The position numbers and the translations under genes were made by a program. Below are positions 14,235 through 15,086 of a DNA stretch of 15,142 nucleotides, piece after piece. Source of the stretch: a virus (taxonomy: Duplodnaviria; Heunggongvirae; Uroviricota; Caudoviricetes). The notes below the pieces were generated by a model. The model did not search any database, was not told the DNA's origin, and was given only the letters and a program-made list of their open reading frames with translations. Numbering within the stretch: position 1 is the stretch's first letter; every line of letters begins with the position of its first letter. The DNA lies in IMG/VR virus record IMGVR_UViG_2671180770_000004, positions 1 to 15,142 of that record. One strand, given 5' to 3'.

Positions 14235-14441
14235 TGACACCAATAATGGGCGTTTTTTACATGTCATTGATGAGCTCAATAACCTGCCGCCGAGTAGTTT
14301 TTATGCTCTGAATTGTATTTGTGTAGTAAACATGCTGACTGCAATGTAATAGAGTTTTTTTAGCCTGTAACCTCTTGACGGCATTGAATTGCTTTTGTTA
14401 TGAGTTGTAAGCCAATGTTATCATCTTGTATTGGGGTGGTT

Positions 14442-15086
14442 ATGAAGGATGGTGCGCTGCTCAGGAGTTCTTCACTTTTTATTGCCTACATGGGATGCCT
14501 TGGATGGGGGAGTGCTTATTTCTATGGATGGGGTACTTCTTTTTACTACGGCTTCCCATGGTGGATTGTAGGTGCAGGTGTTGATGATGTTGCCAGAAGT
14601 TTATTTTTTGCAGTTATCGTCATTGCTATATTTCTTATCGGTTGGGGTATTGGTGTTGTATTCTTTTTCGCAGTGAAAAGAAAACATTCTATGCAAGAGC
14701 TAAATGTATTTCGCCTTTATTTTGCTGTGGAATTATTGTTTGTGCCGGCAATTATTGAGTTTTCTATATTGAGACAGAAGATTCAGGTACCTCTTTTGCT
14801 ACTGTCAGCAGCGATTGCGCTGGCGGTTACAATTTCGATAAGATCTTATGGGCGATTTTTATCGGTATCATGCTTCTATGATAAGCCATTTATAAAAAAA
14901 CATTTTTTTGAGATTGTGATGATTGCTTTTGTGGCATATTTCTGGCTTTTTTCATTTCTGACAGGATATTACAAACCACAGTTTAAGAAAGAATATGAAA
15001 TGATTAATTATAATGATGGTTGGTATTATGTTCTTGCTCGTTATGATAATTGTCTGGTTTTGTCGGTAATGCTGCCAACTTACTGA
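14442..15086 (+). CDS. Polytopic membrane protein (about 214 aa), accessory gene between Q/pR' and the expected lysis cassette
   Basis: AT-rich ORF, aromatic-rich (GWGSAYFYGWGTSFYYGFPWWIVGAGV), with multiple hydrophobic segments. ATG 14442 with GGGG purine tract upstream; the track starts at 14400. Possible own promoter TTGACG (14375-14380), 18-bp spacer, TATGAG. Confidence 0.55.
   Translation: MKDGALLRSSSLFIAYMGCLGWGSAYFYGWGTSFYYGFPWWIVGAGVDDVARSLFFAVIVIAIFLIGWGIGVVFFFAVKRKHSMQELNVFRLYFAVELLFVPAIIEFSILRQKIQVPLLLLSAAIALAVTISIRSYGRFLSVSCFYDKPFIKKHFFEIVMIAFVAYFWLFSFLTGYYKPQFKKEYEMINYNDGWYYVLARYDNCLVLSVMLPTY

Follow-up and report, generated by a model that had tools for sequence, protein, structure and literature searches.

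An IS1-interrupted prophage accessory gene downstream of Q, almost certainly a member of the TfpB/STM1630 family

The gene located 3' of Q in the window (the whole stretch of DNA analysed, 15,142 nt, which is the entire contig CYAV01000080.1) is a widely conserved prophage accessory gene that is familiar and already catalogued. It was assigned, almost certainly correctly, to the TfpB/STM1630 family, with a truncation by IS1 at this site, and the IS1-cut copy is most likely inactive, i.e. a pseudogene. The explanation favored overall, held with somewhat better than even confidence, is a conserved single-gene moron for an inner-membrane protein, cut by IS1 here, the product of which would act as a non-enzymatic binder. 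The following features were assigned:

13540–14163, + strand: lambda-type antiterminator gene Q, 207 aa (ORF list; precomputed Pfam Antiterm match on the same contig)
14206–14250, + strand: late promoter pR' with qut and the early transcribed region (TTGACT at 14206–14211, 17-bp spacer, GAAACT at 14229–14234, start near 14241)
14281–14303, + strand: decayed remnant of the intrinsic terminator of phage 434 (aligned with the annotated terminator of 434, L001 2982–3007)
14375–14404, + strand: candidate sigma70 promoter (−35 TTGACG at 14375–14380, 18-bp spacer, TG of an extended −10 at 14396–14397, −10 TATGAG at 14399–14404; sequence and allele comparison)
14433–14444, + strand: Shine–Dalgarno sequence GGGGTGG (14433–14439) and probable start codon ATG 14442 (MKDGALL...; family alignment and sequence)
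14442–15064, + strand: native part of the coding sequence assigned to the TfpB/STM1630 family (residues 1–208 of 238; 99.9% DNA identity to E. coli prophage copies)
15065–15142, + strand: terminal inverted repeat and first 78 bp of an IS1F-type IS1 (100% identity to annotated IS1F, 97–99% to other IS1 copies)

In the ORF list, the gene appears as an open reading frame of 228 aa at 14400–15086 (+). Its GC content is 37.0%, against 50.0% in Q, 46–50% for the group of ninG, ninI and Q, and 43.5% window-wide, which is the distinct base composition of a moron. Trp, Tyr, Phe and Gly account for 3.1%, 7.5%, 10.5% and 7.0% of the product, respectively, and the description as an AT-rich, aromatic-rich ORF in the first-pass annotation was therefore accurate. 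The two boundaries that it had adopted were not. ATG 14400 is unlikely as a start codon because it lies inside the −10 hexamer of the promoter candidate that the same annotation had put forward. Nearly all of the approximately 100 family clusters are 237–238 aa long and align from the Met encoded at ATG 14442, phrog_14371 and phrog_17164 begin at residue 15 of the 14400 frame, and purine-rich, Shine–Dalgarno-like stretches precede the equivalent start in other alleles. By these alignments, translation most likely starts at ATG 14442.

At the other end, position 15086 had been taken for the end of the gene and the truncation had been missed. The match to phage 434, phage 2B8 and E. coli prophages ends at 15064, and from 15065 onwards the sequence is IS1F, the inverted repeat of which supplies the last six codons (VMLPTY) and the stop codon at 15084–15086. 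In comparison with the intact gene (238 aa), 30 native codons are missing after the junction behind codon 208. In the AF2 model, the native part contains all five predicted helices and, of the C-terminal beta domain, strands one to three; the 30 lost residues correspond to the last two predicted strands of this domain (218–222 and 227–231) and include the conserved F218 and V234. The window copy thus lacks the full-length family architecture (about 237 aa, five helices and a C-terminal five-strand domain). As all helices are present in the truncated product, it may have some activity left. IS1 disruptions of the gene were found at two independent sites, one being that of the window copy.

For the family assignment, Pfam PF27470 (TfpB) was found precomputed on the product of CYAV01000080.1 itself, and PGAP names the identical E. 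coli gene as STM1630 family protein. The match to phrog_1521 had an E value of 3e-133. All 108 homologous clusters carry PF27470, membership being taken from precomputed assignments, and a profile search of 1.8 billion representatives gave 71 matches, to this family only. With a Pfam-A release older than PF27470, neither the window ORF nor any of 22 diverse family members gave a match, NCBIfam returned none for the window ORF, and a PDB sequence profile search gave 0 matches. No enzyme or fold match was obtained for the protein. A role in receptor or envelope modification or in defence, as suggested in the first-pass annotation, found no direct support in PADLOC, NCBIfam, PDB or fold matches.

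The earlier description as a multi-TM protein agrees with both predictions of the topology. By hydropathy, four strong hydrophobic segments were detected. The AF2 model, of modest confidence (pLDDT 66, pTM 0.60), contains five helices (3–36, 47–77, 89–111, 116–139 and 155–181) and five beta strands at 187–231. The protein is predicted to be oriented N-in with five TM helices and a small periplasmic beta domain, K+R being enriched in loops 78–91 and 140–156; the five-TM topology is uncertain because helix 1 is weakly hydrophobic and falls below the hydropathy threshold. This helix is highly conserved: residues 21–41 are nearly invariant (GWGSAYFYGWGxSFYYGFPWW) and form a small-xxx-small ladder, G21/A25/G29/S33/G37, flanked by aromatic residues. 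The N-terminal motif of the family, A-Y-x-G-x-L-G-W-G-S-A-Y-F-Y-G-W-G-x-S-F-Y-Y-G-F-P-W-W followed by D-D/N-V/I-A-R-S-L, was recovered in the window ORF at residues 29–69 of the 14400 frame. Across the wider family, conservation is confined to Gly, Ala, Tyr, Pro and Phe positions, and no catalytic residues are conserved.

The placement of the gene immediately 3' of Q and pR' was confirmed. The Q counterpart in an O26 prophage is annotated as antitermination protein (L003, 5377–6000), and positions 14167–14250 of the window are 90–92% identical to regions annotated as 'promoter / similar to lambda Qut site' in HK97, HK106, HK542, mEp234 and others; the hexamers at 14206–14211 and 14229–14234 were assigned by analogy with lambda pR' and are presumably those of the late promoter. 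Neither a scan nor folding revealed a tR' of the lambda type between pR' and the ORF, and the scan gave no terminator anywhere in 14100–15142. The terminator that directly precedes the gene in 434 folds with −13.3 kcal/mol (z = −3.4); its remnant in the window folds with −2.3 kcal/mol, no better than shuffled sequences. In the O26 prophage, the first strong terminator downstream of the gene comes only after the DUF3927 gene.

The sigma70-like promoter proposed in the first-pass annotation (TTGACG, 18-bp spacer, TATGAG) was present exactly as described. Its layout, TTGAC(G/T)-18 bp-TAT(G/T)NN at 67–74 nt 5' of the ATG, is kept in four diverged alleles, namely the window, a prophage allele of 68% identity (L044–46), an LT-linked ETEC allele (L033) and the chromosomal allele of C. 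rodentium (L043), and hence also on non-phage alleles; the spacers have otherwise diverged, with TGn in three of the four. The site was missed by a generic consensus promoter scan, because TATGAG does not end in the conserved T. For the Salmonella orthologue STM1630, a separate transcription start with a −10 box has been mapped (bioRxiv 10.1101/689075). From the allele comparison, we infer that the gene carries its own sigma70 promoter (TTGACG-18-TGtTATGAG), and it is probably a self-promoted moron. Such a promoter would be active in the lysogen and yield product independently of Q, and abundant product would follow upon Q antitermination from pR'. As there is no terminator between pR' and the gene here, expression in the lysogen could instead come from pR' read-through.

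The distribution of the gene is patchy, as expected for a dispensable moron. A 99.9% DNA-identical gene is present in approximately 600–680 of the 5,426 complete E. coli genomes (about 11–13%, or one in eight), and in 682 of the 5,426, mostly of STEC serotypes, it is intact together with the DUF3927 gene. Among 50,697 phage records, tblastn recovered it from just 3; phages 434 and 2B8 carry it, and lambda is without it. The two IS1 disruptions fit this pattern. In intact relatives, the gene order is Q, TfpB-family gene, DUF3927 gene, class II holin and endolysin, which bears out the proposal of accessory cargo in the Q-to-lysis slot of lambdoid prophages. For the window itself, a location between Q/pR' and the lysis genes could be followed on the Q/pR' side; the lysis side is seen in relatives only, because the contig ends inside IS1, at 15142. 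The DUF3927 gene, the downstream partner in E. coli copies, encodes a TciB-like small membrane protein; in the literature this appeared as the P1 gene name and the PHROG label only, and no study of its function turned up. Searches for TfpB likewise returned unrelated meanings only (an Acinetobacter PilB paralogue, type IVb pili and chemistry acronyms).

Relatives in prophages often lie beside lpxR, a nanS-p-type SASA esterase gene or pmrD. The Salmonella cluster comprises 2,681 sequences adjoining sseJ; other relatives adjoin eltAB on ETEC contigs or lpxR in C. rodentium, or were located on large Shigella contigs rich in IS elements. Pasteurellaceae copies are lone chromosomal genes among housekeeping genes. 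The homologue of Moraxella bovis, lacunata, equi and oblonga is part of the pilin inversion region, where it is flanked by pilin segments and piv, and it is frameshifted in lacunata, equi and oblonga. One distant relative was found in a variable island near icd, next to an AAA_23/AAA_21 ATPase gene pair, and a distant homologue in a Fibrobacter-like contig two genes upstream of a gene for an N_methyl (prepilin-type) protein. STM1630 clusters with SPI-2-co-regulated genes (PMC2639726). Its deletion was reported to be hypermotile (PMC4219756), which was not reproduced with clean deletions (PMC4534456), and no macrophage-replication defect was seen.

Given the lack of conserved catalytic residues and the ladder of helix 1, the protein would act non-enzymatically. 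Helix 1 would pack against itself or against a partner membrane protein, the periplasmic domain would bind an envelope component, and the protein would serve lysogenic conversion or host adaptation and not the phage cycle, in line with the relatives outside phages and the clustering of STM1630 with SPI-2-co-regulated genes. As a mechanism, such non-enzymatic binding in the envelope is put forward tentatively. It may be extended, as a conjecture that is quite unlikely in this form, to the family as a so far unnoticed class of horizontally mobile, host-induced inner-membrane factors, the glycine-zipper/aromatic helix of which docks onto a conserved envelope machine. Candidate targets would be the phage DNA-entry route, the pilin/pseudopilin platform, or lipid A remodelling together with the often adjacent LpxR/PmrD. 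Docking of this kind would account for the way in which, across pathogens from several families, the gene moves together with those for toxins, effectors and LPS modification, relatives being found in Enterobacteriaceae, Pasteurellaceae, Moraxellaceae and Neisseriaceae.

A superinfection-exclusion or anti-phage protein, which blocks the entry of incoming phage DNA or causes abortive infection via a glycine-zipper pore, is an unlikely alternative. The polytopic inner-membrane architecture with its periplasmic domain (AF2 model, K+R loops) is compatible with it, as are the moron position and the likely expression in the lysogen indicated by promoter conservation, and the small-xxx-small pattern of helix 1 resembles that of channel-forming glycine zippers. 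The distant relative beside the AAA_23/AAA_21 pair would also fit. PADLOC, however, assigned 0 families to the protein, its DUF3927 neighbour and the third small membrane ORF of 434. Furthermore, the Salmonella cluster adjoining sseJ, co-regulated with SPI-2, and the lone Pasteurellaceae copies among housekeeping genes point to a cellular rather than an anti-phage role.

The family name itself, the Moraxella homologues between pilin segments and piv, and the Fibrobacter-like homologue near the N_methyl protein gene would speak for an accessory factor of type IV pili or of the type II secretion pseudopilus, which would bind pilins in the inner membrane by their conserved hydrophobic N-terminal helix; the highly conserved TM helix could offer a helix–helix docking surface for this. 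Such a factor is considered very unlikely, as three of the Moraxella copies are frameshifted, no pilin genes occur near the Enterobacteriaceae or Pasteurellaceae loci examined, and the characterised pilin accessory proteins TfpY, TfpZ and FimB are built differently, combining three TM helices with a periplasmic alpha/beta domain of larger size (PMC11841053).

A pure late gene with a lytic role (lysis timing, antiholin or membrane preparation), expressed only via Q antitermination with a fortuitous promoter-like site, is most improbable: the gene is the first ORF 3' of pR'/qut on the strand of the lysis genes, with no terminator in between and a weak −10 hexamer, but nearly all sequenced lambdoid phages are without it, homologues are frequent outside prophages, the promoter layout is kept in non-phage alleles, IS1 disruption is tolerated at two independent positions, and a protein of 238 aa with five helices is unlike holins, with relatives having a separate cassette of class II holin, endolysin and Rz. 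Holins are small proteins of roughly 60–150 aa with 1–4 TM segments. Homology to a holin or another lysis component, named in the first-pass annotation as a finding that would overturn its reading, was looked for and did not emerge, with no holin match in Pfam or PHROG; the size of the protein, the existence of a separate lysis cassette and the homologues outside phages led to the rejection of this identity.

For the window itself, the conserved single-gene moron favored here is of little importance, being a catalogued conserved hypothetical gene that is broken by IS1 where the contig ends; even if the envelope-machine reading were true, this copy would still be an IS1-inactivated example. The family, in contrast, is uncharacterised cargo that STEC prophages commonly carry in the slot also used by stx and that occurs in roughly every eighth complete E. 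coli genome; assigning its function would fill a recurrent blank in maps of prophages and pathogenicity islands. With a conserved promoter candidate and a clear topology prediction, it is easily testable.

Among known systems, TfpY/TfpZ/FimB, compared by described architecture only, are similar in that they reside in the inner membrane, measure about 240 aa, have a periplasmic domain at the C-terminus, are encoded next to pilin genes in some species and have no known enzymatic motif (PMC11841053). Their three TM helices and larger alpha/beta domain differ from the five helices and beta domain of about 55 aa predicted here, and neither the TfpY/FimB-like combination of three TM helices and a mixed beta-sheet/alpha/beta-sheet periplasmic domain nor a neighbouring pilin gene was found, in the AF2 model and around the enterobacterial copies examined, respectively. 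TfpB of Moraxella bovis/lacunata, the ORF of the pilin inversion region after which PF27470 is named, is a full-length homologue. It is 43–44% identical to the intermediate representative P0111, which in turn is 27–31% identical to the enterobacterial proteins, and it shares the helix-1 motif and the C-terminal YY-x-L strands; it differs in its context of pilin segments and the piv recombinase gene, and in being frameshifted in several species.

Classical lambdoid morons, i.e. bor and lom of lambda and stx, nanS-p and lpxR in the Q–S region, are non-essential AT-rich cargo with their own promoter in the late operon, as the TfpB-family gene probably is, and the latter occupies the same Q-to-S slot as stx, nanS-p and lpxR. 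Their products are known (lipoprotein, toxin, esterase, deacylase), unlike the TfpB-family protein. STM1630 is of the same family by NCBI naming; its cluster (P0074) is 46% identical, has 238 aa, the conserved motifs and its own promoter. In contrast to the prophage gene, it is chromosomal, adjoins sseJ, is without a DUF3927 partner and is co-regulated with SPI-2.

The closest counterpart is CPT_434_68 of phage 434, a 'putative membrane protein' (UMO75332.1) that equals E. coli WP_001302581.1, named hypothetical or 'STM1630 family protein' by PGAP. DNA identity is 98.8–99.9%, over 14298–15064 of the window for 434 and over 14164–15064 for E. coli prophages, and the position 3' of Q and the upstream promoter-like region are shared. 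The 434 and E. coli copies are intact, with 238 aa from MKDG (annotated as 247 aa) and the DUF3927 gene following, whereas the window copy is cut by IS1. Upstream, the antiterminator of 434 is of the Q82 type and its terminator is intact; in the window, Q is of the lambda type and the terminator is decayed.

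The gene downstream of Q is a conserved hypothetical membrane-protein gene of lambdoid prophages that databases already list. The copy in the window is cut short by IS1 where the contig ends, and the finding is real but ordinary. Its product matched phrog_1521 (unknown function) at E = 3e-133, and 108 homologous clusters were retrieved among 5.8 billion proteins, all with the precomputed domain PF27470, labelled 'TfpB'. The identical E. coli protein is named 'STM1630 family protein' in recent PGAP annotations, and the phage 434 copy is annotated as 'putative membrane protein' (CPT_434_68). 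The TfpB family is small and compact: of 1.8 billion representative proteins searched exhaustively with a profile, only 71 matched.

Upstream of the ORF, on the same strand, lies a lambdoid early and nin region encoding Kil, N, a CI-type repressor, CII, a DnaB-like helicase, NinB, an HNH protein, NinG, NinH and NinI phosphatase. The relevant features are:
13540-14163, + strand: lambda-type Q, 207 aa
14375-14404, + strand: promoter candidate of the first-pass annotation (-35 TTGACG, 14375-14380; 18-bp spacer; -10 TATGAG, 14399-14404)
14400-15086, + strand: TfpB-family ORF as first called (228 aa, ORF list)
The location originally given for Q and pR'/qut was borne out by window 14167-14250, which is 90-92% identical to 'promoter / lambda Qut-like site' annotations of HK97-type phages. 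The description of the ORF as AT-rich and coding for an aromatic- and Gly-rich membrane protein also held, with a GC content of 37.0% (vs 50.0% for Q), 21% Phe + Tyr + Trp and 7% Gly in the product, and several strongly hydrophobic segments by hydropathy.

Two further ORFs of the window were recorded. A 616-aa ORF (9213-11066, - strand), antisense inside the nin region between the NinB and HNH/NinG genes, matches phrog_9230 (unknown function), has a counterpart in the O26:H11 11368 prophage (L003, 1240-3012) and gave no Pfam or PADLOC match; it is a large uncharacterised moron. The CI-type repressor gene (3380-4096, - strand) is directly followed by a 128-aa ORF (2994-3383, - strand), at a site typical of lysogen-expressed genes of the rexAB/sieB type; the ORF matches phrog_6534 (unknown) and gave no PADLOC match.

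Both boundaries first assigned to the TfpB-family ORF were wrong. At the 3' end, megablast alignments with phage 434, phage 2B8 and hundreds of E. coli prophages run no further than 15064, and 15065-15142 matches IS1 elements (100% to annotated IS1F); GGTAATGCTGCCAACTTACTGAT at 15065 is the IS1 terminal inverted repeat, in agreement with this match. The intact protein (434, O26:H11 11368) reads ...LVLS-TSFNAGSKRFVIYQSAQDKNLQVDIVRTRI and the window copy ...LVLS-VMLPTY-stop, a gene-IS1 fusion that was found in one other sequencing run by look-up of the fused product. With the insertion, the two final predicted strands are lost along with the conserved F218 and V234, and the window copy is probably inactive. 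At the 5' end, family members, nearly all of 237-238 aa, align from Met at 14442 (MKDGALL), whose ATG is preceded by a GGGGTGG Shine-Dalgarno; other alleles carry equivalent purine-rich motifs before the start. The start codon is probably at 14442, not 14400. A second, independent IS1 insertion was observed in E. coli OkiPb01684 (L004, 4253-5773) at another site, approximately codon 155 of the same gene; with two insertions, either the AT-rich gene is a hot-spot for IS1 targeting or its loss is freely tolerated.

In lambdoid prophages the gene order is Q, the TfpB-family gene, a gene for a 52-aa DUF3927 ('TciB-like') membrane protein, then class II holin, endolysin and Rz, with extra cargo (SASA/NanS-p-type esterase, LpxR, PmrD) sometimes between DUF3927 and holin. 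Of 5,426 complete E. coli genomes, 682 had the TfpB-family and DUF3927 genes intact, 670 of them at ≥99% identity, and the carriers included, among the examples listed, O157:H7, O55:H7, O26, O103, O111, O145 and O45; only three of 50,697 phage records carried the TfpB-family gene (434, and 2B8 entered twice). This Q-to-lysis slot and the AT-rich gene make the earlier interpretation as a moron reasonable. The lysis cassette predicted downstream is present in the relatives; the window, being the entire contig CYAV01000080.1 (GCA_001277695.1, 15,142 bp), breaks inside the IS1F-type element and so does not show the lysis genes.

Diverged alleles outside the main group (46-68% identity) adjoin lpxR in other prophages and on the C. 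rodentium chromosome, and sseJ on the Salmonella chromosome, where the gene is STM1630. In Shigella such an allele lies on IS-rich contigs of ~230-250 kb, and one cluster member is annotated as plasmid-borne. On ETEC contigs (L033-L036, 4987-7714), which also bear STb and numerous IS elements, a family member of 57-59% identity is located ~0.9 kb from the heat-labile enterotoxin (LT) genes eltAB, in divergent orientation. A prophage Q-to-S region may have left a remnant at the LT locus. Across three kinds of context, the lipid A deacylase gene lpxR adjoins the TfpB-family gene or lies within ~1.3 kb of it:
C. rodentium chromosome (L043), 4863-6717
three prophages with the 68% allele (L044-L046), 6001-7919
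phage 434 (L001), 810-3861, and O157:H7 Xuzhou21 prophage (L052), 3744-6794
At one of these lpxR-linked prophages pmrD is also present. The recurrent lpxR, pmrD, toxin and effector neighbours may point to a moron hot-spot that all of them share, and not to a functional link. Phage 434 (603-692) and the Xuzhou21 prophage (3529-3600) retain, after ninI, a short piece from the N-terminal end of lambda-type Q, and lpxR, ylcG and a Q82-type antiterminator come next; the piece is a module-replacement scar at the same junction at which lambda Q is intact in the window.

The promoter candidate stood as to its hexamers, which are present, and failed in combination with the proposed start, because ATG 14400 falls within the -10 TATGAG and the two are therefore mutually exclusive. 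A generic promoter scan did not list the site, as its -10 lacks the final T. Four alleles with otherwise unalignable flanking DNA share this layout, placed 67-74 nt before the start codon, and three of them have a TGn extended -10:
window allele: TTGACG-18-TATGAG
68% prophage allele: TTGACG-18-TATTTG
LT-linked allele: TTGACG-18-TATGTA
C. rodentium allele: TTGATT-18-TATGGA
The candidate is reasonable and is strengthened by this comparison, and the Salmonella orthologue STM1630 has its own mapped transcription start and -10 box (bioRxiv 10.1101/689075). In phage 434 an intrinsic terminator (-13.3 kcal/mol, z = -3.4) lies directly upstream of the promoter. A terminator just upstream of a gene's own promoter is the textbook moron arrangement. 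Its window counterpart has decayed (-2.3 kcal/mol), scanning and folding detected no terminator between pR' and the gene in the window, and the O26 prophage has its first strong terminator past the DUF3927 gene. Expression in the lysogen from the gene's own predicted promoter is plausible, possibly also from unterminated pR' transcripts, and strong expression would be expected following Q antitermination.

The protein was modelled with AlphaFold2 from a 37-sequence alignment at modest confidence (pLDDT 66, pTM 0.60), predicting five long helices (3-36, 47-77, 89-111, 116-139, 155-181) and a five-strand domain (187-231). Lys/Arg residues cluster in loops 78-91 and 140-156, which by the positive-inside rule would be cytoplasmic; the N-terminus would then lie inside as well, with the C-terminal beta domain located in the periplasm. 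Conservation is highest in helix 1 and the following turn, where residues 21-41 (GWGSAYFYGWGxSFYYGFPWW) show practically no variation across the enterobacterial proteins and form a small-residue ladder at each fourth position (G21, A25, G29, S33, G37) flanked by aromatic residues. Whole-family conservation is limited to Gly, Ala, Tyr, Pro and Phe positions, and since no candidate catalytic residue was found among these, a non-enzymatic role is tentatively favoured. In this reading the helices may pack tightly through self-association or partner docking, and the small periplasmic domain may serve in binding.

For STM1630, a deletion was hypermotile in a library screen (PMC4219756); 7 of 24 cleanly rebuilt mutants kept a phenotype, STM1630 not being among them (PMC4534456), and an ST313 study reported decreased intracellular replication only for STM2475, the other gene tested (bioRxiv 10.1101/689075). 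A pilus accessory role is suggested by a sole hint, the position of distant homologues (25-45% identity) inside the type IV pilin inversion region of Moraxella bovis, lacunata, equi and oblonga, the source of the name TfpB. There, tfpB is split by frameshifts in M. lacunata (L009, 6001-6784), M. equi (L012, 6001-6785) and M. oblonga (L026, 4007-4966), and is an intact 261-aa ORF in M. bovis (L007). Other homologues in this identity range are lone genes amid housekeeping genes, in many Pasteurellaceae and also in one Conchiformibius genome. Of the members that are more remote again, one kind adjoins an ATPase gene pair within a variable island and another belongs to a Fibrobacter-like operon. 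Positive evidence for defence or superinfection exclusion, a possible role, was not obtained, the protein giving no PADLOC match. Identity as a holin or other lysis component, the outcome that the first-pass annotation had set against its own reading, was rejected on the protein's excessive size and polytopic character, the separate and complete lysis cassette of relatives, and the common occurrence of homologues outside phages. As to the pilus, the predicted TfpB-family architecture differs from that of the characterised pilin accessory proteins TfpY/FimB (PMC11841053).
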